DNA from: Promethearchaeota archaeon
Lineage (GTDB): Archaea > Asgardarchaeota > Lokiarchaeia > Sigyniarchaeales > SOKP01
DNA length: 64,000 bases
Assembly (NCBI GenBank): GCA_048939015.1
Contig: JBHLPW010000003.1
Span: 67,628 to 131,627, forward strand
Reading direction: 5' to 3'
The stretch's first letter is position 1, and each line of letters opens with the position of its first letter. The translations under genes and the position numbers were made by a program. The notes beneath the pieces were generated by a model that did no database searches, was not told the DNA's origin, and saw only the letters and a list, made by a program, of their open reading frames with translations. Shown here in pieces: positions 1-16,535 of the stretch.

Positions 1-282
1 AGAACCACACATTTTAATATATACCTCTATTTTTACAAAGTAACCAACATCAACGGAGGGGTCGATATAATTTATTGTGATGTTTCCTACATCGATTTTA
101 AGATTTAATATTTCTATAGATGGTGTATTTGGATCAGTTTCAAAATTAAGTGGCTCTTGAGTAATATACGTGTCATAAGTTGACAGATGGCTTGAAATAT
201 ACAAAATCGGTATAGAACTAATAAGAAGAGTAAAGATGATAACCGTTATACTAATACTCCTTATGATATGTTTTTTCATCAT
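1..282 (-). CDS. Partial CDS, N-terminally anchored or secreted protein (runs off window start)
   Basis: Manual translation from ATG 282: MMKKHIIRSISITVIIFTLLISSIPILY... open to position 1; basic N-terminus plus hydrophobic helix; not in ORF track. Confidence 0.7.
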   Translation of the reverse strand, partial: MMKKHIIRSISITVIIFTLLISSIPILYISSHLSTYDTYITQEPLNFETDPNTPSIEILNLKIDVGNITINYIDPSVDVGYFVKIEVYIKMCGS

Positions 283-575
283 CTTTAAAACCTTCGACCT
301 AGATTTAGTAACTCTACAATTATTTAGATAAGAGAGTCTTTTATTTAAATTAACGTATCAGATAAAGGATTTAAAAATCAATTTTCGATAAAATTATTAT
401 CTTAATTCAGGATATAAAAAAAACATAATTCTTTTATATTGAAATCGCTTATAAGCTAATTATTATAAGATAATCTAAATTCAAATCATAGTACTAGTGA
501 TTCCAAACAATTCTCTTAATAACTTTTGATCTATTAGAGCGTTTTTTTTCCACCATCGCCATTTTTGTATTAATT

Positions 576-1616
576 GTGTGTAGTCTATTTTATATCTCCC
601 GTGGTCGTAAAAGGGATATAATACATGATAAAATGCTAATGTATGGATTTGCCAGTTTTTGGTTTAGTATCGCATTAGCAAGAATTTATTTTTTTTTTGC
701 TGATTACTTTTTAGAAGGAACATATAGCGGCGATTTAAGCCAAATTTATCTCACTTTCAACACCATAAATTACGTATTGATGTACTTTTATCTTTATTTA
801 TACATATTTATACTTGTGAGTGTGGTCTCCTTAAGTATAATTTTCATTTGGTTTTCGATAAGATCAAGTAAGGAATTCAAAGCGATTTCCTCAATAATGA
901 CAATAGGTTATGCAGTATTTTTAGTAGGATGGGTGTTTGAGACTATGGTAATCAAATATGAAAGTTATGTGGCACCTTCAATTCCACCTATACTTATGAT
1001 TATTGGGGCACTTGTAGCAATGTCACCATTGATAATTGATCTTCAATTTTTTGCGAAATCTTTTGTTAACTGGATAATAATAGTTTCAATTGCTTTCATA
1101 TTCCTTGCTTTATGTTTAACCTTATTCACACAATTACCAACACTGATAATAATTCAAATTATTATAATATTTGCTTCTTTTGTTCTGGTGTTTGCGCTTC
1201 TTTATATCTCGATTAATGTCTATAAAGTTTATAAATCTCCAAAGTCTTTAATGGAAGATCAAGAAAAAGAACTTAGAGATTTTATACGAGCCTTTTCAAA
1301 ACCTCAAAGGATTACAGAAGAAGAAGTGCAAATGTATAAACAAAAGATGATTTGTCTTGTATGTAAAAGTCATATTTCACGTGTTAACTACGTTTGCCCT
1401 GAGTGTAATGCACTTTATTGTATCAAGTGTTCAAATGCGCTGAGTAATTTAGAAAATGCATGTTGGGTGTGTGATACACCATTTGATGAGTCTCGACCAA
1501 TACAACCTCATGAGGTGGTTGAAGAAGCTTTAGGTTTTGAAGAACAGATTATCGCAGAAAGTGAAGTAGGAGAACCACATAAAGCTTTAAAAAAGGCAAA
1601 AAAAATCAAAAAATAA
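576..1616 (+). CDS. Multi-pass membrane protein with C-terminal C4C4 RING-like zinc finger (candidate membrane E3 ligase)
   Basis: About 6-7 hydrophobic segments, then CLVC-x10-CPEC-x4-CIKC-x9-CWVC; frame is open upstream to 501 without ATG, so the true start may be earlier. Confidence 0.7.
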   Translation: MCSLFYISRGRKRDIIHDKMLMYGFASFWFSIALARIYFFFADYFLEGTYSGDLSQIYLTFNTINYVLMYFYLYLYIFILVSVVSLSIIFIWFSIRSSKEFKAISSIMTIGYAVFLVGWVFETMVIKYESYVAPSIPPILMIIGALVAMSPLIIDLQFFAKSFVNWIIIVSIAFIFLALCLTLFTQLPTLIIIQIIIIFASFVLVFALLYISINVYKVYKSPKSLMEDQEKELRDFIRAFSKPQRITEEEVQMYKQKMICLVCKSHISRVNYVCPECNALYCIKCSNALSNLENACWVCDTPFDESRPIQPHEVVEEALGFEEQIIAESEVGEPHKALKKAKKIKK

Positions 1617-1627
1617 AAAAGAAATAT

Positions 1628-1903
1628 GTGAGAAGAAACAAGATGATATTAATGATTTTTTCTGTATTAAGCGATTTATATTTTTTGGTTGGGCTATTAC
1701 TTGTTATTTTTTTGGTAATACCTTATTCTATCTTAATATTTCTAACAATCTGGGTATATAGAGATGCTAAAAGAAAAGAAATTAATGCTGCCGCATGGGT
1801 TTTAATAGTATGGATAATTCCTTTTTTCATTGGGTTCATCCTATATTTATCTATTAGAAATAAATCGATTTCAAGTACTGTGAGTAGAGAGATACCTGAA
1901 TAA
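1628..1903 (+). CDS. Small membrane protein, PLDc_N (cardiolipin-synthase N-terminal)-like
   Basis: WVYRDAKRKEINAAAWVLIVWIIPFFIGFILYL matches the PLDc_N pattern. Confidence 0.65.
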   Translation: MRRNKMILMIFSVLSDLYFLVGLLLVIFLVIPYSILIFLTIWVYRDAKRKEINAAAWVLIVWIIPFFIGFILYLSIRNKSISSTVSREIPE

Positions 1904-1995
1904 ATTATGTGAAAAATTAAATTATAAAAAATAAATATTAAAAACAACAAAAACAATATTTACAATATATAATAAATTGAAAGGTGCGAAAAAAA

Positions 1996-2253
1996 ATGCG
2001 AATCAGTGTGGAAGATAGTCGTACTGGAAAGCTAATTAAATTAGATGTTAAAAATCACCATCAGATTGAAAGAATAGTTGATATTATCATAAAGCATATG
2101 GGTATTATAAGCGCAGAACAACGTTCGTATACACTTGTCCTCAAAGATCAAGAGTTACCAAATACAATAACTATTGAGGATGCCATTCACAAATTCGGAT
2201 TACAAGAAAATGATAAGTTAATTCTATGGGCTAAAGTTATTGGTGGATTTTAA
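1996..2253 (+). CDS. Ubiquitin-like modifier (beta-grasp), pro-form ending GG-F
   Basis: MRISVED...G..IKLDV...IERIVD...LQENDKLILWAKVIGGF; 85 aa from ATG 1996 (track starts at GTG 1984); adjacent to E2/E1/JAMM. Confidence 0.85.
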   Translation: MRISVEDSRTGKLIKLDVKNHHQIERIVDIIIKHMGIISAEQRSYTLVLKDQELPNTITIEDAIHKFGLQENDKLILWAKVIGGF

Positions 2254-2279
2254 TTTAATAAATACTTAGTAAAATTTGC

Positions 2280-2840
2280 CTAATCATCTATAATTAAAAC
2301 ATCCTCCTCTTCTTCCTCTTTTTCCTCAATCTGTTCTTCAGCAATATTGAGTCCTTCTTTAATCTCACTCATTGTCTTATTTCTAAATAATTCTGCAGCT
2401 TCTAAACATATTGGATAATTAAGAGGATCATCAGGATTTGGATTTTCTACTAAATTTTTAAGTGCTTTAGCTGTAGTTTCTAAATCAGATAACCGCGACC
2501 ACTTTTTCAAAACATTAAGACAAATGTATCCTGTACCAGGATTTCCTTGGGGAATTTGAACAGGATGAATGTTAGGATGAAATATATGCGTTATCCAGGA
2601 GAAATCAATTCCGCCGGGATATGGAAATGATCTATTAATTTTCAAGAAAATGCGATGTGATCTTTGTGGTATAAGTTCTCCTTTATTTTTAATAAGTCCT
2701 AAAGCATTTATATTTATTGTGAACTCAACACTAGATTCCCCTTTAAGAACGGTATTTTCTTCCAATACCTTTAATTTTTTTATATTTGTGAGTTCATTTT
2801 CAATTCTGTCCTTCCAAATTTCATAAGGTAATTCTGGCAA
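2280..2840 (-). CDS. Ubiquitin-conjugating enzyme E2 (UBC fold)
   Basis: FPYP...IFHPNI...GYICLNVLKKW...NPNPDDPLN; HPN triad and catalytic Cys; TTG start after GAGGGG. Confidence 0.92.
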   Translation of the reverse strand: MPELPYEIWKDRIENELTNIKKLKVLEENTVLKGESSVEFTININALGLIKNKGELIPQRSHRIFLKINRSFPYPGGIDFSWITHIFHPNIHPVQIPQGNPGTGYICLNVLKKWSRLSDLETTAKALKNLVENPNPDDPLNYPICLEAAELFRNKTMSEIKEGLNIAEEQIEEKEEEEEDVLIIDD

Positions 2841-2953
2841 TTCTTTTACCCCTCATTAATTTTTTAAAATTAAATCATAATTATTATTAATTTTTTTCTT
2901 TATTATTTTTTGGATATTTTTAATTTTATTATATTCAACTTTTGTGAGCTTTT

Positions 2954-3835
2954 TCAATCTTTTTTATCATAGGAGCACGTCCAACATTCAGGATTCTTCA
3001 ATTTTTCAACAACTCTAAATTTATTTAATAATCCATTATAGTTTAACTGTTTACCAATCAAAGGTTTACCTATATAAGTATCCCATTTACCATGTTCTTT
3101 AAAATAATCTAAACCTAAGACAAATTTTAATACTTGTTGTGATTGGAGGCCTCCAATAATTGATGTTGTAGTTATAATTGTTGCTACTTTTGCCACAGTT
3201 TCACCATTTTCACTCTGAATTTCTTCACCAGTACAAGAAAATTTTTTCCACATTAAATCTAAGTCTGCATTAGAAATACTACATTGCAAACATGCAGCAT
3301 CTTTCTCTTCAGAATAAACTGCTTGAACACTACCAAAAAACTCTTCAATCCCAGAATCCACGAAAGGCACTCCATAATAATAAGCATAATTATTTGCTTG
3401 TAGTCTAGCCTCTACATTATCGAGACACGAACATATAACATCAGATTTTTGATAAAGAGTCTTATCAATATCGTTTAAATCCTTTTTTATTGCTACAATT
3501 TCGCTATCAGGATTTAATTCTTCGCATGCATTTTTCACAACATCTACTTTATATTCTTTATTTTGAGCACTTTGGTTATTAAATAACACACATCGATTTA
3601 AATTTGAAATATTTATAAAATCATAGTCTACTAATATTAATTTACCGACACCAGTTAACACTAAATTTTTCACAACTTCATTTCCTGTGGCACCAACCCC
3701 GATTATGAGAACTGTAGCGTTAGAAATCTTTTTTTGATCCCAACCCTCAATACGTTTTTGACGATCAAATTTATCTGAGTCTATAGATTCAACTCCAAAG
3801 ACTTCATAATCTGCTTTTTTTTCTTTACTTGGCAT
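2954..3835 (-). CDS. Ubiquitin-activating E1-like enzyme (ThiF/MoeB/E1 family)
   Basis: FDRQ, GVGATG, VDYD...SNLNR, CLDN, CLQC and CWTC zinc motifs, candidate catalytic Cys in FSCTG; ATG 3835 is the likely start. Confidence 0.92.
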   Translation of the reverse strand: MPSKEKKADYEVFGVESIDSDKFDRQKRIEGWDQKKISNATVLIIGVGATGNEVVKNLVLTGVGKLILVDYDFINISNLNRCVLFNNQSAQNKEYKVDVVKNACEELNPDSEIVAIKKDLNDIDKTLYQKSDVICSCLDNVEARLQANNYAYYYGVPFVDSGIEEFFGSVQAVYSEEKDAACLQCSISNADLDLMWKKFSCTGEEIQSENGETVAKVATIITTTSIIGGLQSQQVLKFVLGLDYFKEHGKWDTYIGKPLIGKQLNYNGLLNKFRVVEKLKNPECWTCSYDKKD

Positions 3836-3854
3836 ATACTCAATATTTATAAGG

Positions 3855-4358
3855 TTAATTCGAATTAAAGTCCACAACTGCATAACTTACTTCTTTATAA
3901 CCCTTTTCTGAATTTTTATCAAGAGTATAAAATTGGGAATCATCGTCAACTGGATCGACAACTAATGCTACTTGATATGATTCTGGAAAAAAATATTTCT
4001 GAGTTTTTACGTCTGTTTTAGACAAAAAACAACCGAATCCTGGATGTGAGTGCCACCAGCCTACTATTCTTAAACTCTCATCCTTTCTTCTTCTTTTTAA
4101 TCTTTGAAATTTCTTATCATACTTTCCCGCAGCACCCTCTATTTGAGCTGTAGAATATTTATCACTATAAATGGCACCTAAAAGAAAAAGAAGTTCTTCT
4201 ATTTTAACATAAAGTTTCTCGTCCCATTTCAATATATTTCCTATTAAATATCCAAAAATTTCATTATGAAAGTTTTTACATAATATCTTTATCCTATTTA
4301 AGACATCTTTTTTAATATATACTGGAAATACAAAATTTTCTTCAAATGTCATTATCAT
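3855..4358 (-). CDS. JAMM/MPN+ metalloprotease (Rpn11-like deubiquitinase or maturase)
   Basis: EIFGYLIG and [17 protein letters not shown] (HxH-x7-S-x2-D), ALVVDP. Confidence 0.92.
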
Positions 4359-5275
4359 TAATTTTTCTTAATTTCTTTTATTGAGCGTATAGAAAAATTC
4401 TCACTCTTTTTTAAAATTGAGATTTCTAACATATTTTTTATTATTTGATTAATTTGGTCTCGCGAATTTCCTTGAATCGCAGAAAACCCAAATGTTTTTA
4501 ACCCAAAAGACTCATTAATTTTGCTAGGTTCAAATGCAGAGTTAATAGAGTCTTGGAAATTTGCGAGTATATAAAAATCGATATTTTTAACTCTCTCTTT
4601 TAATCTTGAGTATAAATTACTAGTTCGGCTTAAATTACCAGCACCAGAGTTGGTAACTATACAAATTATATTAATCTTGGCAATTAAGGGTTTATAATTA
4701 CTGAAGTTTTCTACTAAATCTACTAAATTTATTTCTCTTATAACAAACTCATTAATTCCTTCTAAGTTAGAAATCTTCACTGTTTTTTCTACGATCTCAT
4801 TCATCTCATCATCAATTTCTAATACAGTTTCTCCAGGAAATAGATTCATAATTGTTGATTTTCCTACACCGTCCTCACCTGCTAATAAAATCTTGGGTGG
4901 GATTATAATATTATTTTCTATAAAATTACCAAAATCTTTAATCTGAGGGCTCTGATCATTTCCTGTTCCCAATCCATTCTTAAATCGTTTGAAAAATTCT
5001 TCCTTCACCAACTCTAACTTATACATTACTTCATCTTCCGGATCATAATGATCAGTCGTAACTATGAATACATAATCTTGTCGACCATAGGTATATACAA
5101 AATTAAAATTCTCAAAATTTAATGATCTTATATATCCTCCTTCAATCTTTTTACAAACACGTGTAATAAGAGTAAGAAAGCTTACGATATCATTATTTAT
5201 ATGATCAGCACCATAAAATGATTTAAAATAGCGGACTACTCCATCCAATGTAATAATATAGATATTCGATATCAT
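4358..5275 (-). CDS. Longin-domain / small GTPase fusion, paralog 1
   Basis: N-terminal longin-like [16 protein letters not shown]...SFLT; P-loop GEDGVGKST; ANFQD; FSAI; stop overlaps JAMM start (TAATG). Confidence 0.8.
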
Positions 5276-5403
5276 ACCAGAATTTTAATTTTCTCTTTTT
5301 CTTACTTTTGACTTTAACTTTTCTTATTTTTTTAATAAATATATGTAATATAATTACATGAACAATGAAATTGTATTCTTCTTACTTTTTGATAATTAAA
5401 TCT

Positions 5404-6300
5404 TTAAATTTGCTTACTTTCTATTTTTTCTATTATTGAAATTTTTATCATTTCACTAATTATTTCAAGTATCTTTTCTTCAGCTTCCTTTTTAATTGCA
5501 CAAAAACCATACGTTTGCATACCAAATAATTCTTCTACTTTTTCTGGTTCATATGATGTATTTTCTAGATCTTGAAAATTAGCTATCACATAATAATCCG
5601 CTTTTTTGACTATTTTTTCTAATTGAGAGTAAAATCTTTGAGTTCTACCTAAATTACTTGCACCAGAATTAGTAACAATGCAAATTATATCGACTGAATC
5701 CAATATTGGTCTATAAATTTTAGAATTTTTAATCAATTCCTCCAAATCAAATTCCCGTAATACTATCTCCTTTATTCTTTTAAAATTAGATAAGGGGATA
5801 GATTTTTGAATAATTTCATTCAAGTCTCCATCAAGTTCTAACACAGTTTCTCCAGGTAATAAATCCATGATGGTTGTTTTTCCTACCCCCAGTTCGCCTA
5901 CAAGCAATATTTTGGGCGGGATAAAGATGTGGTTTTCTGCGAATTCATCAAATACTTCGAATCTTCCTGTTTCACATTTCCAATTTATTAAATCATCGTG
6001 AAATTGTCTAATAAATTCATTTTTCATTAACTCTAGTTTATCTTGCGCTTCCTCTTCAGGATCATCAATCTCTGTAACAATAATAAACATACATAACTTT
6101 TCATCGTCATATGTATATACAAAATTAAAATTTCTGAAATTCAACGATTTTATTTCGCCCCCGCCAATTTCCTTTGCAATACTACTAATTGCTGTAAGGA
6201 ATCCGCTTACTAAATCATAATCCATGTCATCGCTTCCCACAAATGTCTTTGAATAACAAAGAACACCATTAGCCATTATTATGAGTATTTTAGATATCAT
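5404..6300 (-). CDS. Longin-domain / small GTPase fusion, paralog 2
   Basis: ILIIMANGVLCYSKTF...LVSGFLTAISSIAKEIGGGEIKSLNF; GELGVGKTT; ANFQD; FCAI. Confidence 0.85.
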   Translation of the reverse strand: MISKILIIMANGVLCYSKTFVGSDDMDYDLVSGFLTAISSIAKEIGGGEIKSLNFRNFNFVYTYDDEKLCMFIIVTEIDDPEEEAQDKLELMKNEFIRQFHDDLINWKCETGRFEVFDEFAENHIFIPPKILLVGELGVGKTTIMDLLPGETVLELDGDLNEIIQKSIPLSNFKRIKEIVLREFDLEELIKNSKIYRPILDSVDIICIVTNSGASNLGRTQRFYSQLEKIVKKADYYVIANFQDLENTSYEPEKVEELFGMQTYGFCAIKKEAEEKILEIISEMIKISIIEKIESKQI

Positions 6301-6424
6301 TTTGAATTTCTTATTTTATTCTATTAATAATTAATTTAATAATAGAGTTGAGTATTATTTAAAATAACTGTGCGGAATTATCATTGTCATTATGAATATC
6401 CCTTTTAAAAATCTGTGAAATGAT

Positions 6425-6580
6425 ATGGGTGAAGAAGAAAAGGATTCAAAATCAAATGATCATTATCCAACAATAATATCTTACGAAGATCGAGAAATTA
6501 AAGAACAAAAACCTCCAAATGATAAAATTATTAGTTATAAAATCGTAGATGAGAAAATAAATTCAGATTCTGAAGATTAA
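6425..6580 (+). CDS. Unannotated 51-aa acidic micro-protein
   Basis: MGEEEKDSKSNDHYPTIISYEDREIKEQKPPNDKIISYKIVDEKINSDSED; fills the intergenic gap; purine-rich coding-like composition; below ORF-track cutoff. Confidence 0.5.
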   Translation: MGEEEKDSKSNDHYPTIISYEDREIKEQKPPNDKIISYKIVDEKINSDSED

Positions 6581-6609
6581 TTATCAAATCTCATAAGATC
6601 TATAGAGAT

Positions 6610-7557
6610 CTAGTCTACGTAAATAATAATATCATCATCTTCTTCCTTTTTAGATTCATCAATAGCTTTTTTGTTATTATGTTGTTTTTTTAGGATCGTT
6701 CTATTTACCATTTCTTCTATAATCTTATAAATTTCATTCCTTGCTTTTTTTGATATTGCTGAAAGCCCATACGTTTTTACTCTAAAAAATTCTTCCACTT
6801 TTTCAGGAACAAGTGCTGTATTAAAATCCTGGAAGTTAGCAATAATATAAAAATCTGCTTTTTTTATCTTTTGTTCTAACAATGAAAACATCCTATGTGT
6901 ATTACGTAGATTCATTCCTCCTGAATTTGTTACAAAACAAATAATATCAACAGAATCTAAAAGTTGCCTATAATTATTTTGATTATCAACTAGATCTTGT
7001 AAGTCCATCTCTCTTATTACAATCTCCTGGATTTCCTCTAGATTTGGTAGTTTAATTGACTTCTCTACGATGTCATTGGTATCTTCATCAATTTTTATTA
7101 CCGTTTCTCCAGGAAATAAATTGAAGATGGTCGATTTCCCAGTACCCGGAACACCAACTAATAAAATCTTAGGAGGTATAAAAATGTGAGTATTAATATA
7201 TTCATCAAAACTTTCAAACTTTCCAACATCACAATCCCAATTTTTAATTTCCTGTCGATATCTCTTGAAAAATTCAAATTTAAGCGATTCTAATTTATAT
7301 CTTACTTCCTCTTCAGGATCATCAATATTGGTTACTATAATAAAAATCCAATTCTTCTCATAATCAAAGGTGAATACAATATTAAAATTTCTAAAATTTA
7401 ATGATCGTACCTCTCCCCCACCGATCTCGCTCGCTATATTGCTAATTGCTGTGAAAAAGCCACTTATAAAATCTTCATCAATAGACTCTTCGCTAAAAAA
7501 TGATTTTGAATAGCATAGAACTCCACTCGCTTTTATTATGAATATTTTTTTTATCAT
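6610..7557 (-). CDS. Longin-domain / small GTPase fusion, paralog 3
   Basis: MIKKIFIIKASGVLCYSKSF...FISGFFTAIS; GVPGTGKST; ANFQD; LSAI; acidic tail EEDDDIIIYVD; ATG 7557 aligns with paralog starts. Confidence 0.85.
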   Translation of the reverse strand: MIKKIFIIKASGVLCYSKSFFSEESIDEDFISGFFTAISNIASEIGGGEVRSLNFRNFNIVFTFDYEKNWIFIIVTNIDDPEEEVRYKLESLKFEFFKRYRQEIKNWDCDVGKFESFDEYINTHIFIPPKILLVGVPGTGKSTIFNLFPGETVIKIDEDTNDIVEKSIKLPNLEEIQEIVIREMDLQDLVDNQNNYRQLLDSVDIICFVTNSGGMNLRNTHRMFSLLEQKIKKADFYIIANFQDFNTALVPEKVEEFFRVKTYGLSAISKKARNEIYKIIEEMVNRTILKKQHNNKKAIDESKKEEDDDIIIYVD

Positions 7558-7600: not shown

Positions 7601-9484
7601 TTAATATGATTCCTCTATCATCTCAAGGAATATATCAGCTATATTAAGCCATTTATTTTTATGTTCAGGCTCTAATGTTTCTTTTTTTGTCAATTCTTTC
7701 CCTTTTTTGAGATATTTAATAGATTGATCCTTGTTTCCTAAATGTTTATAGCAAATTCCTAATTTTATATAAGTTTGATTAATATACCATTCTTCAGGAC
7801 TTAATTCAACTACTTTTTGAAATTGCACTAGTGCTTCATGGTAGTTTTGGTTATACATTAGAATCTCCCCATATGTATCTAGATAAGTAGGATTATTTGG
7901 AGAGTTCAAAATAAGATTCTCAATGATTTCTAACGATTCATCTTTTTGATCCATATACTGCAACCAGTAAGCTTTGTACATAAGTAAATCTTTATCATCT
8001 GGGTAATCTTGAAGTAATCCTTCTATAATTTCAAATCCCGCTTTAAGTTTGTTTATTCGTTTTAGAATTGATGCTTTCTTAATTTTGATTTCTCTCCTAT
8101 TCTCTGGAAATTTGTCAACCATTTCATCTAAATCCCTTGAAGCTTCATTATAACGACCTAAATAAATCAAAATTTTAATTTTAGAATAATAATTCTCCAT
8201 ATTCTGTGAATTTTTACTAATTTTCTCATTTATGTTTAAAAGTTCTTGTTCATATTGATTTTCAGATTCTTGAAATAACTCAGCCATATTTTGCCAAATA
8301 ATTCCCTCTAATTTATCCCCAATCCCTCTTAATTCAGGCTCTGTTTCAATTTTATATGCTAAATAATTAATATAATCAGGTAAAAAATTATACAGGGATT
8401 CTTCTAATCCTTTAATAAATAATTTATCTAAGCATTCTTCTAGAATTTTATCAATAATTAACTGTTTATTTATTGATTTTGAAAAGAGTCTATTAAAGTA
8501 AGTCAACATAGTAACATGTTCTTCTGTTATCGCTCTAAGCATCATTTCAATTTTTTCATTTTCTTGAAAATAATAAATCTGGTCTGATGAAACTTTTAAT
8601 TGAAAAAATTTAATCGGATATAATCCATTTTCTACAATTTGATCAATGTAATAAGTAAGGGTATTCTCTTTAATGCCATATTTCTTTGAAAATGTCTCAG
8701 GTGATTCATAGTTAGGAAATTCATTAGGGTGATTTACTGAAAGAAATAGTATAATTTTGTTAAAATCATCCTCATTTTTTAGCAATGATTCCACTCTGGT
8801 ATAATCTAATTTTACAATATTGTTTAGAAGCCTAAATTGTAAGAATTCATCCTCAATCTTATTTTTTTTAAAAAAATCAATAGTCTTGTTAGTGATTTCC
8901 TCAACTCGCTTACTTTCTCTTTCTAAAATTGATTGTCTGTCTAAATTGTAATTTTGTAGCATATAGGCATACTCGACTTTCCCTTTTCTTGTGATTTTAT
9001 ATTCCTTGCTCTCATCATCCTTTTCTACTAAACCTTCTCTTTTTAATTGTTTTAAGTATTTTGATAGTGAGGTTTGATTGATTGCAACAGGCTCTTCGAG
9101 AAAATCAGACCACTTACAGTAGCTATTGTTATAGAGCATCCATAATATCCAATGATCATAATTCCTACCTTTCTTTAGGATAATATTTGGCGGAAAGTTT
9201 ACTTTTCTTATTTCTACTGCATTTTGAGACAATTTATTGAATCGAATTATCCCATCTGGGGTAATTTTATAATGCCCTATATCAGATTTAACTATTAAAC
9301 CTTGATTTCTTAGAACTCTTAAATATCTTGACAATGTAGAAGTTGGAATTTTAAGGTTAACAAAATCAGACCACTCACTATCATCATTATTACTCAACAT
9401 CCAGAGAATAATATGCTCATAATTTTTCTTATCCATTGCTGGAGGGTTGAGAATCTCTTGAGGAGGGTAAATTTTCACTGGCAT
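7601..9484 (-). CDS. Tandem winged-helix + TPR protein (putative transcription regulator), paralog A
   Basis: Two wHTH repeats (IPTSTLSRYLRVLRNQGLI..YKITPDG; INQTSLSKYLKQLKREGLV..YKITRKG) and C-terminal TPRs (YLDTYGEIL..YHEALVQFQKVVELSP). Confidence 0.8.
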   Translation of the reverse strand: MPVKIYPPQEILNPPAMDKKNYEHIILWMLSNNDDSEWSDFVNLKIPTSTLSRYLRVLRNQGLIVKSDIGHYKITPDGIIRFNKLSQNAVEIRKVNFPPNIILKKGRNYDHWILWMLYNNSYCKWSDFLEEPVAINQTSLSKYLKQLKREGLVEKDDESKEYKITRKGKVEYAYMLQNYNLDRQSILERESKRVEEITNKTIDFFKKNKIEDEFLQFRLLNNIVKLDYTRVESLLKNEDDFNKIILFLSVNHPNEFPNYESPETFSKKYGIKENTLTYYIDQIVENGLYPIKFFQLKVSSDQIYYFQENEKIEMMLRAITEEHVTMLTYFNRLFSKSINKQLIIDKILEECLDKLFIKGLEESLYNFLPDYINYLAYKIETEPELRGIGDKLEGIIWQNMAELFQESENQYEQELLNINEKISKNSQNMENYYSKIKILIYLGRYNEASRDLDEMVDKFPENRREIKIKKASILKRINKLKAGFEIIEGLLQDYPDDKDLLMYKAYWLQYMDQKDESLEIIENLILNSPNNPTYLDTYGEILMYNQNYHEALVQFQKVVELSPEEWYINQTYIKLGICYKHLGNKDQSIKYLKKGKELTKKETLEPEHKNKWLNIADIFLEMIEESY

Positions 9485-12443: not shown

Positions 12444-12992
12444 ATGGGAAATTCTGTAAAAAAATTTAGATTTAAAATTACTGTCATAGGGGATGGTAGA
12501 GTAGGAAAGACATCCCTTATTAAGAAATTCACTTTAGGTACTTTTAAAACAGATTATGTTGAAACAATAGGTGCTCAATTCTCTAAATATGAAAAAGAAA
12601 TTCACGGAGATAATATTCGATTACTATTTTGGGACATTGCAGGACAAAGAGAGTTTGATTTTCTTCGGCCTTCTTTCTACAAGGAAAGTAACGCAGCTGT
12701 CATAGTTTATAGTCTTGAACAAAATGAGCTTGGAGATGGAAGCTTTAGACACATAAACGATTGGGATAACGAAATTAAGAAATTTTGCGGAGATATCCCG
12801 ATTGTGGTATTTGCAAACAAAGCTGATTTAATAAATGAGAACGATCTAAATTTATCTAAAATTGAAAAAATTGTAAGAGAACATAATTTTCTCGGATATT
12901 ATATTACTTCGGCAAAAACAGGACAAGGTGTTTATAAAGCTTTTGATGATATTATTGAAAATGTATATTATAGTCTTGTAGAAACTAGTTAG
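12444..12992 (+). CDS. Rab-like small GTPase
   Basis: GDGRVGKTS, TIG, WDIAGQ, NKAD, TSAK; no C-terminal Cys. Confidence 0.93.
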   Translation: MGNSVKKFRFKITVIGDGRVGKTSLIKKFTLGTFKTDYVETIGAQFSKYEKEIHGDNIRLLFWDIAGQREFDFLRPSFYKESNAAVIVYSLEQNELGDGSFRHINDWDNEIKKFCGDIPIVVFANKADLINENDLNLSKIEKIVREHNFLGYYITSAKTGQGVYKAFDDIIENVYYSLVETS

Positions 12993-14624: not shown

Positions 14625-16535
14625 TTAAGGAGATAATAGAATCTTTTGTTCCTCTATCTCAGCAAGAAAAAGGTCTACAATTGCTAACCACTTGTTTTTT
14701 GATTCAATATCGCTAGTAATTTTGTTTGTTAATTCTTTTCCTTTCCTGAGATTTTCAAGCGCTAAATCAATATTATCAAGTGCAGAATAGCAAATTCCAA
14801 TTTTGATATAGGTCTGGTAGATAAACCACTTATTTGGATCAATTTCTATGGTTTTTTTAAACTCTTTTATGGCTTTTTCATATTCTTTAAAGGTTATTAA
14901 GATTTCTCCATAGGTATCATGATAAATTCCTTTTTTTGGTTCGCTTTCGGTGAGGCTCCGAAGGATTTTCAATGCTTCTTGTCTCTTACCTAAATATGAT
15001 AACCAATAAGCTTTATAATTATAAAGAGAATTATCATCAGGAAATTTTTCGAGTAATTCTTCAATAATTTCTAATCCCGCCTCCAAATTTTTATCTTTTT
15101 TAAGAGTATATGCCTTTTTTATCTTAATATCAATCTCCTTTTCTGGAAATAATGCTCTCATATTCTCTAACACTGTTAGAACCTCGTTGTATTGATTAAA
15201 ATAGATTAGAATTCTAATCTTTGAATTATATAATTCATAATTATTAGGGTTTCTACTGATTTCTTTATCAATTTCTTTAATTTTTTCTTCGTACTGAGAT
15301 TTAAAATTTTCAATATTCTGCAATTCCAAAATGTCTGTCATGTTCTGCCAAATTATGCCTTCTAACTTATCATAAGTATCTTTTAATTCTTTTTTTATCT
15401 CCATTTTATATGCTAAATATTTGATATATCTTGGTAAAAATTCACTCAATGATTCCTTGAAATGTTTATTGAATAAGGTTTCACAAATTTCGTCAAGAAT
15501 ATTCTCTATAATAAAGTCAAAACTCCCAGATCTCCCAAATTTCTCTAAATATTTGTTTGTTGCAATATGTTCTTCAGTTATAGCTCGAAGGATCTTCTCT
15601 AATTTTTCATCCGAATGAAAATAGTAATGTTTATTTGGAGAAATATCTAATTTAAAAAACTTTAAGTCATATAAGTCGCTTTCTACGATCTCATTTACCC
15701 AAAAATCAAGGATTCTCTTTTTGATTTCATAAAATCTCGAAAATTCCTCAAAAGATAAATAGTCAGGATAAAAATCGGGATGATTTATCGATAAAAAAAG
15801 TAAGATTTTATGAAAATCCTCTTCATTTTTTAAAATTGCTTTAACTTTTGAATAATCTAATTTTAACACATTATTCAAAAATCTAAATTTGACCTGATCA
15901 TCTGAAATACTATATTTATTAAAAAACAGTGAAGTCTTTGTAGTAATTTCATCAATCCTTTTCTTTTCTTCCTCCAATATTGTTTGTCTATCCAAATCAT
16001 ATTGCTGTAAAATTCTCGAATATTCAGATTTGCCCGATTGAGTAATTATATATCTTTTATTTTCTTTGATGATAAAACCCTTTTGAGTCAATAAATCTAG
16101 ACTTTTTGATAAAGAGGATTGATTTATAGATAGTGGTTCTTCAAGAAAGTCAGTTCTTTTGCAATAACCATTATTATAAACCATCCATAGAATCCAATGA
16201 GGATAATTTCTACCTCTTTTTAAGATAATATTAGGTGGATAATTCAGTTTACGTTTTATTTTTCTTTCTTTTGATAACTCATGAAATCTTCTTCTTCCTT
16301 CTGGAGTTATCCTGTATTTTCCTCTAGAAAACTTTTCTATAAATCCGTTGAGGATTAATTTTCCTAAATGACGTGATATTGTAGATATTGGGATTTCCAC
16401 TGGCTTTTGCTCAAAATTAGACCATTCACAACTTTCATTATTAGCTAATATCCAAAGGATTATCTGTTCGTAATTCCTTCTTTGCAGTTCTGAAGGGTTA
16501 AGAACCTCCTTAGATGGATAATTAAATTTTCCCAT
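14625..16535 (-). CDS. Tandem winged-helix + TPR protein (putative transcription regulator), paralog B
   Basis: Collinear with 7601-9484 over its full length (NYE.IILW, GRNY.HWILWM, KLEGIIWQNM, DTYGEIL, YQTYIK.GICY). Confidence 0.8.
   Translation of the reverse strand: MGKFNYPSKEVLNPSELQRRNYEQIILWILANNESCEWSNFEQKPVEIPISTISRHLGKLILNGFIEKFSRGKYRITPEGRRRFHELSKERKIKRKLNYPPNIILKRGRNYPHWILWMVYNNGYCKRTDFLEEPLSINQSSLSKSLDLLTQKGFIIKENKRYIITQSGKSEYSRILQQYDLDRQTILEEEKKRIDEITTKTSLFFNKYSISDDQVKFRFLNNVLKLDYSKVKAILKNEEDFHKILLFLSINHPDFYPDYLSFEEFSRFYEIKKRILDFWVNEIVESDLYDLKFFKLDISPNKHYYFHSDEKLEKILRAITEEHIATNKYLEKFGRSGSFDFIIENILDEICETLFNKHFKESLSEFLPRYIKYLAYKMEIKKELKDTYDKLEGIIWQNMTDILELQNIENFKSQYEEKIKEIDKEISRNPNNYELYNSKIRILIYFNQYNEVLTVLENMRALFPEKEIDIKIKKAYTLKKDKNLEAGLEIIEELLEKFPDDNSLYNYKAYWLSYLGKRQEALKILRSLTESEPKKGIYHDTYGEILITFKEYEKAIKEFKKTIEIDPNKWFIYQTYIKIGICYSALDNIDLALENLRKGKELTNKITSDIESKNKWLAIVDLFLAEIEEQKILLSP

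Follow-up and report, generated by a model that had tools for sequence, protein, structure and literature searches.

A ubiquitin gene module with longin-pseudo-GTPases and membrane RING-fold proteins: a possible signaling pathway of Lokiarchaeia

Do the GTPase-like proteins and the membrane finger protein encoded beside a ubiquitin cascade in a lokiarchaeal genome belong to that cascade, and, if they do, what might the assembly accomplish? The question is raised by a 64,000-nucleotide stretch of DNA (the window, in which all coordinates are given), where a first-pass annotation had proposed a dedicated system that ubiquitylates longin-GTPases or is gated by them. The genes at the locus are real and intact, the host genome belongs to the Lokiarchaeia, and a check of coordinates and translations recovered all nine open reading frames of that annotation at their places and on their strands. 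On the plus strand lie a ~7-TM membrane protein with a cytoplasmic C4C4 RING-fold finger (510..1616, start uncertain), which is a candidate receptor-type E3; a small 2-TM protein of the PLDc_N family (1628..1903; Pfam PLDc_N, 3e-5); and a pro-ubiquitin of eukaryote-like fold (1996..2253) that ends in GG plus Phe, with its mature end at 2247. The minus strand encodes an E2 conjugating enzyme with HPN, Cys107, and an acidic tail (2280..2840; UQ_con, 2.7e-10); a ThiF-type E1 with two zinc CxxC motifs and a candidate catalytic Cys201 (2954..3835; ThiF, 1e-49); a JAMM/MPN+ metalloprotease with an intact E-HSH-S-D motif (3855..4358; JAB, 1.9e-10); and three longin-pseudo-GTPases, namely, paralog 3 (4358..5275, 305 aa), which adjoins JAMM, paralog 2 (5404..6300, 298 aa), which has an Arf/MglA-like fold, an intact P-loop, and NFQD for NKxD, and paralog 1 (6610..7557, 315 aa). 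The UQ_con, ThiF, JAB, and PLDc_N matches lie above the Pfam cut-offs; the longin and G domains match weakly. Corrected starts are likely for ubiquitin (1996), E1 (3835), and pseudo-GTPase paralog 1 (7557). For the RING gene, the ORF caller chose GTG at 576; the frame is open from 501, and the true start is probably ATT at 510, judging by alignment to homologue N termini.

The HPN and Cys107 of the E2 are invariant across homologues, as are E33, HSH 103-105, S113, and D116 of JAMM. Ubiquitin homologues have an invariant GG followed by a tail of 0 to 11 residues; their profile matches eukaryotic ubiquitin chains, and identity is 73 to 93% among main-locus copies and 62% for copies in the satellite cassettes described below. 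(A Pfam hint of an RA domain in the ubiquitin, at E 0.087, was too weak and was discarded.) Intact motifs and the precedent of the Caldiarchaeum cascade (PMC5654768) suggest that JAMM would trim pro-ubiquitin to Gly-Gly and later deconjugate it and that E1 and a single dedicated E2, encoded by separate genes, would charge it. The E2 has loops (FPYP and WSRL) of the RING-binding type. The locus is distinct from the two other E1/E2 loci of the genome (C5 and C17), which bears out the idea of a dedicated system. No ESCRT, Vps4, or UEV gene was recognized in the mapped loci; Vps4 and ESCRT-III homologues lie on contig C10.

In the survey of related genomes that had been suggested as a check, a pseudo-GTPase gene immediately precedes JAMM in the same orientation at 51 of 55 loci, an order that spans five genera of the family plus a second family, f4. 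The three-copy array is a duplication inside one sub-clade, and the majority of genomes carry a single copy there. The TAATG overlap noted between paralog 3 (stop, 4360-4358) and JAMM (ATG, 4358) is present in the window but is not conserved: alignment of JAMM homologues points to the Met at 4352 instead of to that ATG, and the gap between the two genes at other loci runs from about -86 to +83 nt. Ubiquitin occurs in 70, the pseudo-GTPase in 69, and the RING protein in 79 of 135 family genomes; 65 have all three and 54 have none, counts that are not independent, as the genomes are kin, and that derive mostly from incomplete MAGs. Since the RING gene is one of 18 paralogs in this genome, its adjacency alone had to be tested: a RING gene lies within 5 kb of ubiquitin at 24 of 34 main loci (10 have none), against a chance proximity of at most about 5% (18 copies × 10 kb / 4 Mb). 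The linkage of the G and RING genes to ubiquitin genes is beyond chance, and these are conserved neighbors that are inherited together with them. Presence of the module is patchy inside several genera. Module-less genomes retain other E2s, but nothing in them matched this E2, ubiquitin, or 7TM domain, and the JAMMs found there are distant ones. The RING copies of two near-complete module-less genomes mostly contain stop codons (two of three in G220 and the only one in G242); in a third genome, G237 (100% complete), three RING genes are open, and no E2 or ubiquitin of this family was found. The module is found in two families of one lokiarchaeal order only, and its ubiquitin family is equally restricted.

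We read these genes as an accessory, lineage-specific ubiquitin signaling pathway of Lokiarchaeia, in which numerous sensor-RING E3s share one E1/E2 and the pseudo-GTPase serves as adaptor or substrate, a reading to which we assign a probability of roughly 0.55. The module itself is well supported; the mechanism is our inference from it. Members of the C4C4-RING family would act as E3s, each with an interchangeable input part, and the RING would be the output domain, in the place of the histidine kinase or cyclase that prokaryotic sensors usually use. The pseudo-GTPase, having given up GTP switching, would be a shared cytoplasmic partner, standing between RING, E2, and ubiquitin in the role of adaptor or substrate, and longin, TPR, or TPR-nitrilase parts would have been joined to it in different lineages; a role as adaptor or scaffold has slightly better than even odds, and one as principal substrate slightly worse. 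Support comes from gene order, co-inheritance, the satellite cassettes, the RING fold, the variety of input domains, and the loss of G motifs with Lys166 retained; the replacement of Pro by Trp, the lack of an Arg linchpin, p44-like scores, G237, the dispersed genes of f4, and the 10 RING-less loci weaken it. In a more specific version that we consider less likely than not, up to 18 RING-output sensors would converge on one E1/E2, the pseudo-GTPase would be the receiver that is ubiquitylated or docked, and the RING/pseudo-GTPase/ubiquitin cassettes would be channels insulated from one another, each with a ubiquitin variant of its own. Together, the genes suggest that ubiquitin tagging serves this archaeon as a signal relay.

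How well the C4C4 protein fits the part of a ligase depends on its finger (1353..1472), C-x2-C-x10-C-x2-C-x4-C-x2-C-x10-C-x2-C, whose eight C/H zinc-ligand columns are conserved in 94 to 95 of 95 rows. An AF2 model of the finger (pLDDT 88) has the RING fold and superimposes on its best structural matches, which include the RINGs of HRD1, RNF4, and p44, at Z 4 to 5.2 and rmsd 2 to 3 Å over ~50 residues; the leading VIA-align rows are nearly all RING/U-box domains, and the best HMM matches are RNF4 and TRIM37. RING folds that are E3-inactive or not E3s, such as TFIIH p44, score as well as E3 RINGs (Z 4 to 5). Among the E2-contact positions, V/I26 and L53 are conserved, the linchpin position is N/E/D in place of Arg, and the Pro that RINGs usually carry after Cys7 is Trp in 94 of 95 rows. 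The C4C4-RING proteins are thus candidate E3s with atypical contact positions. Genomes of the family encode 1 to 18 of them, and their input domains vary: a ~7-TM bundle, an extracellular beta-helix with one TM, or soluble TPR repeats. The 7TM part reaches TM 0.4 to 0.48 against HisKA_7TM models, so that its assignment as a 7TM sensor is a lead only. Complex prediction for RING, E2, ubiquitin, and pseudo-GTPase gave 0.58/0.50/0.61, with 0.00 and 0.00 for partner-replaced controls and 0.43 for the E2-replaced control, values that we weigh neither for nor against the reading.

The alternative that survives best, unlikely as we consider it, makes the pseudo-GTPase a regulator of JAMM or E1, or an E3-like factor, and the C4C4 proteins downstream readers or substrates of ubiquitin and not ligases. 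It accords with the atypical finger, with the 10 main loci that have no nearby RING, and with family f4, where the module is dispersed and the G-JAMM-E1 block, the oldest conserved block, is intact with E2, ubiquitin, and RINGs elsewhere. The 16 satellite cassettes, in 13 genomes, argue otherwise: in these, JAMM, E1, and E2 are dropped and the pseudo-GTPase is kept with RING and ubiquitin, under purifying selection (dN/dS 0.19 to 0.29, GG intact). The RING fold, the conserved hydrophobic contact positions, and the RING-binding-type loops retained by the E2 also favor ligases.

As for the G proteins, the original proposal held that active longin-GTPase switches gate or obey ubiquitylation for membrane trafficking, in the manner of Rab/Arf. 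Their longin domain, the nearby membrane RING, and the Arf/MglA-like fold (best Foldseek matches of the G-domain model: Arf/Arl/MglA, E ~1e-8) suit this view, and because the P-loop GxxxxGK (Lys in 96 of 97 rows) and N-x-Q-D are retained, nucleotide binding is possible. Switch gating did not hold up, however: the G2 Thr, G3 DxxG, and G4 Lys are lost across the family (the G2 column is Q/E/K, the G3 Gly column mostly E/D, and G4 is NFQD in 92 of 97 rows and NKQD in 1) but are all retained by four longin-GTPase paralogs of the same genome, which marks the proteins as pseudo-GTPases rather than switches. With the satellite forms lacking longin and the ESCRT genes on another contig, the analogy to control of endomembrane GTPases loses support as well, and we regard active switching as improbable. 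Lys166 (codon 5803-5805 in paralog 2) lies in the switch-I hairpin, is retained in 96 of 97 rows, and may be a ubiquitin acceptor or, alternatively, structural or phosphate-binding. The TPR-nitrilase tail carried by some pseudo-GTPases was ruled out as a feature peculiar to the module, having turned up on further long proteins of genomes that lack it.

No better are the prospects of antiviral conjugation, of the Bil/ISG15-like or CBASS E1-E2/JAB kind, tagging viral or membrane proteins. Defense genes typically show patchy presence inside genera, cassette duplication, and expanded paralog sets, and all three are seen here; against this, PADLOC returned only generic E1 and JAB domain matches (ubiquitin, E2, RING, and G without a match), ubiquitin is strongly conserved, and the neighbors are not defense genes but solute-binding proteins, Rab-like GTPases, and wHTH-TPR regulators. 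In CBASS/Pycsar, moreover, E1-E2 is fused and accompanied by a cyclase and an effector, whereas here E1 and E2 are separate and no cyclase was recognized in the mapped loci. That the G and RING genes merely hitch-hike beside an ordinary ubiquitin operon can be all but dismissed: wHTH-TPR and SBP_bac_5 genes also recur near the locus, and the wHTH-TPR gene at 7601-9484, tried as a module part, is independent of it (present in five of five module-less genomes tested), but co-presence holds for unlinked copies, RINGs decay once the module is lost, and satellites are under purifying selection.

Eukaryotic membrane RING E3s include HRD1, MARCH, and PA-TM-RING, and C4C4 RINGs include NOT4 and TFIIH p44. 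The lokiarchaeal proteins share with the former a transmembrane or ectodomain input and a cytoplasmic RING, but the only homology seen is in the finger, an atypical one with Trp in place of Pro and no Arg linchpin; because just two lokiarchaeal families have these RING proteins, this looks like parallel invention. The closest archaeal comparison is the Caldiarchaeum subterraneum operon, Ub-E1-E2-srfp(RING)-Rpn11 (PMC5654768, PMC6043591), which likewise clusters a GG-plus-tail pro-ubiquitin, a ThiF-type E1, an HPN/Cys E2, JAMM, and a RING-fold protein. Its RING-H2 protein is small and soluble, whereas the locus here has no srfp gene, its sole RING-fold gene being the polytopic C4C4 protein, and C4C4 RINGs occur on membrane or TPR input domains in up to 18 copies; a pseudo-GTPase at the operon head and satellite cassettes are further differences. 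A eukaryote-like cascade is shared with the Asgard ubiquitin-ESCRT clusters (Hatano 2022, PMC9192718; Makarova 2024, PMC10936438; bioRxiv 10.1101/2023.07.25.550441), but the locus has no ESCRT/UEV gene and represents an additional, lineage-restricted system, which the searched passages of these papers do not describe. The clusters also provide a precedent for neighbors as substrates, in that the neighboring nonenzyme gene product UEV-Vps23 of Helarchaeia proved to be one. Longin plus an Arf/Rag-like G domain recurs in longin-fused Rag/Arf-like GTPases of Asgard archaea (bioRxiv 10.1101/2020.10.19.343400; PMC10933270), including canonical paralogs in this genome (e.g., on C34), in contrast with which the present clade no longer has G2, G3, or the G4 Lys and is operon-linked to ubiquitin enzymes; GTPase genes of MK-D1 generally lie outside operons with their regulators, and ubiquitin is never mentioned (PMC10933270). 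Eukaryotic pseudoGTPases (CENP-M, p190RhoGAP domains), which serve as scaffolds, likewise have a G fold without switch or catalytic motifs (PMC10211241), but the present ones come from archaea, arose independently, and are tied to a ubiquitin cascade. No description of the ubiquitin/longin-G linkage was found in the part of the literature searched, and its novelty is therefore provisional.

To our knowledge, the archaeal ubiquitin systems described so far each include a single small E3, and few of their substrates are known. The present lineage seems to repeat the eukaryotic plan of one E1/E2 and many E3s, some of them membrane and receptor-like, and to combine it with multiple ubiquitin paralogs and a pseudo-enzyme as cofactor. 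Because it occurs in two families of one order only, the module bears on convergent complexity and not on direct eukaryotic ancestry; its soluble parts are small and reconstitutable, so that Asgard ubiquitin use beyond ESCRT is directly testable.

A scan for sigma-70 promoters and terminators, with models ill-suited to archaea, gave 45 hits versus 47 in shuffles. Whether the cassette is a main or a satellite one, the PLDc_N gene often stands immediately 3′ of the RING gene. At 11 loci, divergent small ORFs of a family designated F11 lie upstream of the pseudo-GTPase gene; a 51-aa plus-strand ORF in the window (6425..6580) resembles this family, by eye only.

The window's ubiquitin-enzyme genes, degenerate longin-GTPase genes (hereafter pseudo-G), and C4C4-finger (RING) gene form a real module, and its parts very probably function as one, a case built on intact enzymes, conserved gene order, co-inheritance, motif loss, folds, and selection. 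All genes named in the first-pass annotation were recovered by ORF and Pfam analysis from this 4.86-Mb assembly (G000; window at C32:67628–131627; GC content of the window contig, 30.7%). Close homologues of its proteins are mostly labelled Promethearchaeota or Lokiarchaeia, suggesting an Asgard archaeon of lokiarchaeal affiliation. In the mechanism that we favor (probability roughly 0.55), sensor-RING proteins would, on a signal, activate a dedicated E2, pseudo-G would act as a common adaptor or substrate, and the ubiquitin would be matured, and then recycled, by the JAMM protein.

The E2 carries an HPN motif and a Cys107 that are invariant among homologues, the metal motif of the JAMM is complete, and the E1 contains two CxxC motifs and Cys201. 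The modifier matches eukaryotic ubiquitin in a profile comparison, and because nearly all copies end in GG plus a short tail, JAMM trimming of the window pro-ubiquitin is expected by analogy with Caldiarchaeum (PMC5654768). The module would operate in the manner of the cascades of Caldiarchaeum and other Asgard archaea, yet it is neither a Caldiarchaeum-type small-RING operon nor a ubiquitin-ESCRT cluster; ESCRT-III and Vps4 homologues of this genome (G000) are placed on contig C10. Three E2s pass the Pfam cutoff in G000, and the window system is additional to two other loci: one on C5 (L181, G000:C5:30770–37426), an operon in which a membrane finger protein accompanies a ubiquitin-like protein, E1, E2, and JAMM, and one on C17 (L182, C17:29378–34351), with a 527-aa E1 beside an E2.

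The C4C4 finger adopts a RING fold: it is best matched in profile searches by RNF4 and TRIM37, and the top VIA-align rows for its model are nearly all RING or U-box domains (Z of 4 to 5.2, low values, as expected at about 50 residues). Because Trp replaces the usual Pro and the Arg linchpin is missing, despite conservation of Val/Ile in loop 1 and Leu in the helix, we rate E3 activity as plausible; an unlikely alternative, though the best placed of those considered, is that the fingers are not ligases and that pseudo-G regulates the enzymes. G000 encodes 18 RING copies, whose N-terminal parts are polytopic transmembrane bundles, beta-helix ectodomains with a single transmembrane segment, or soluble TPR repeats; the weak likeness of the bundle to HisKA_7TM sensor domains (TM-score, 0.4 to 0.48) is a lead only. 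A RING copy lies within 5 kb of ubiquitin in 24 of 34 main loci (those with the enzyme block). In two near-complete genomes without window-type E2 and ubiquitin, three of the four remaining RING copies contain stops; G237, also without both, still has three open copies and is the main exception to this decay. Just upstream of the window's RING gene lie three tandem pairs (L185, G000:C32:62097–67909, and window 1–282) of F10, a large membrane-anchored protein whose homologue in genome G003 is SBP_bac_5, and F9, an unannotated membrane-anchored protein of ~330 aa; comparable pairs are found ahead of RING in many cassettes, main as well as satellite, and their products may be ligand-binding partners of the 7-TM RING. 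In family f4 (G041; L189, L205, and L198), C4C4 RING matches fall inside very long open frames (1,300 to 2,400 aa), possibly surface proteins.

What the first-pass annotation called GTPases turned out to be pseudo-GTPases. The AF2 model (pLDDT, 86.7) has an N-terminal longin-like alpha/beta domain followed by a G domain closest to Arf/Arl and MglA. The P-loop Lys survives in 96 of 97 family rows, but the G2 Thr column is Q/E/K, E or D predominates in the G3 Gly column, and the G4 motif is NFQD in 92 rows and NKQD in a single row from f4, whereas four longin-GTPase paralogs of G000 keep PT, DFAGQ, and NKQD. The family splits from these canonical paralogs with 100/100 support, subject to a long-branch warning and an outgroup of four rows. 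Its switch-I region forms an acidic hairpin that is conserved and includes Asp157 (95/97) and Lys166 (96/97), neither of which is shared with the canonical paralogs. From this motif loss we infer that GTPase switching was lost, while nucleotide binding may be retained; genuine switching in the service of trafficking is improbable. The three window copies stem from duplication inside a single sub-clade, and for the orthologues of every copy dN is far under dS. Longin-GTPase fusions are already known in Asgard archaea (bioRxiv 10.1101/2020.10.19.343400; PMC10933270); the examined portions of that literature describe neither a degenerate clade nor a ubiquitin link.

A long form, combining longin, pseudo-G, TPR-like, and nitrilase-fold domains, occurs at L172:1744–4371 (G000:C125), flanked by two RING paralogs, and at 17 other loci; its nitrilase-fold domain is highly conserved, with the Glu-Lys-Cys triad intact. 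The TPR-nitrilase part recurs on ~1,277-aa TPR proteins (G000 contigs C15, C112, and C117), which adjoin the operon in three g28 genomes.

Of the 400 phylum genomes, 74 contain the window's ubiquitin family: 70/135 of its own family, 4/4 of f4, and none of the rest at E ≤ 1e-12. Near-complete relatives lacking it retain other E2s and have only distant JAMM matches. Ubiquitin, pseudo-G, and RING are jointly present in 65 and jointly absent in 54 of the 135 family genomes (counts from kin, mostly incomplete, given without a P value). Module presence is polymorphic inside several genera; that the module is a defence system seems, all the same, doubtful. The proposed linkage of G genes to ubiquitin enzymes extends across related genomes: the order Ub> <E2 <E1 <JAMM <G is repeated in genera g1, g21, g27, g28, and g29, and f4 keeps G-JAMM-E1 or G-E1 as a block, with E2 and ubiquitin located elsewhere. 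Among the 55 JAMM loci having an upstream neighbor, a co-oriented G gene is immediately upstream in 51 (one a fragment) and lies past an inserted ORF in 1 more. That the G and RING genes merely hitch-hike beside a ubiquitin operon is very improbable. The TAATG overlap of G stop and JAMM start, also remarked on in the first-pass annotation, is present in the window but not conserved in homologous loci.

Satellite cassettes (16 in 13 genomes) comprise RING, usually PLDc_N, pseudo-G, and a ubiquitin paralog, and all 16 lack E1, E2, and JAMM. Since their two layouts, RING> PLDc_N> G-TPR> <Ub and RING> Ub> <longin-G-TPR-nitrilase, equal the G002/G265-type and G014-type main loci, respectively, minus the enzyme block, satellites would have arisen through two or more duplications, with the shared enzymes lost afterwards. 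In satellites, the median dN/dS values of ubiquitin, G, and RING are 0.19, 0.29, and 0.24, respectively (pairs not independent). Satellite ubiquitins all keep GG and diverge in the N-terminal half, and the constant part of pseudo-G proteins is the G domain, not longin. The simplest reading is that enzymes act in trans and that RING, pseudo-G, and ubiquitin constitute a specificity unit.

A domain of the ubiquitin family also forms the N-terminal part of two longer proteins, L148:7911–9539 (G278; 542 aa) and L149:2–1297 (G013:C248; at least 431 aa), one with an internal GG and both otherwise without Pfam matches; these are possible JAMM-cleaved linear fusions. Degraded loci include a truncated RING beside ubiquitin (G030, L063:7618–7848), a duplicate locus with E2 disrupted and E1 missing (G029:C76, L091), and a fragmentary pseudo-G (G233, L165). 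A 51-aa ORF (window 6425–6580) resembles by eye F11, found divergently upstream of pseudo-G in 11 loci, and is a candidate microprotein or, alternatively, a candidate conserved noncoding element. Tandem-wHTH-TPR proteins (window 7601–9484 and 14625–16535) have six close paralogs in G000, and a shorter form (~420 aa) often flanks satellite ubiquitin genes; the family was rejected as a module part because it is also present in module-less genomes. A canonical-looking Rab-like small GTPase lies at window 12444–12992, and similar genes (F6) occur near the module in 20 loci.
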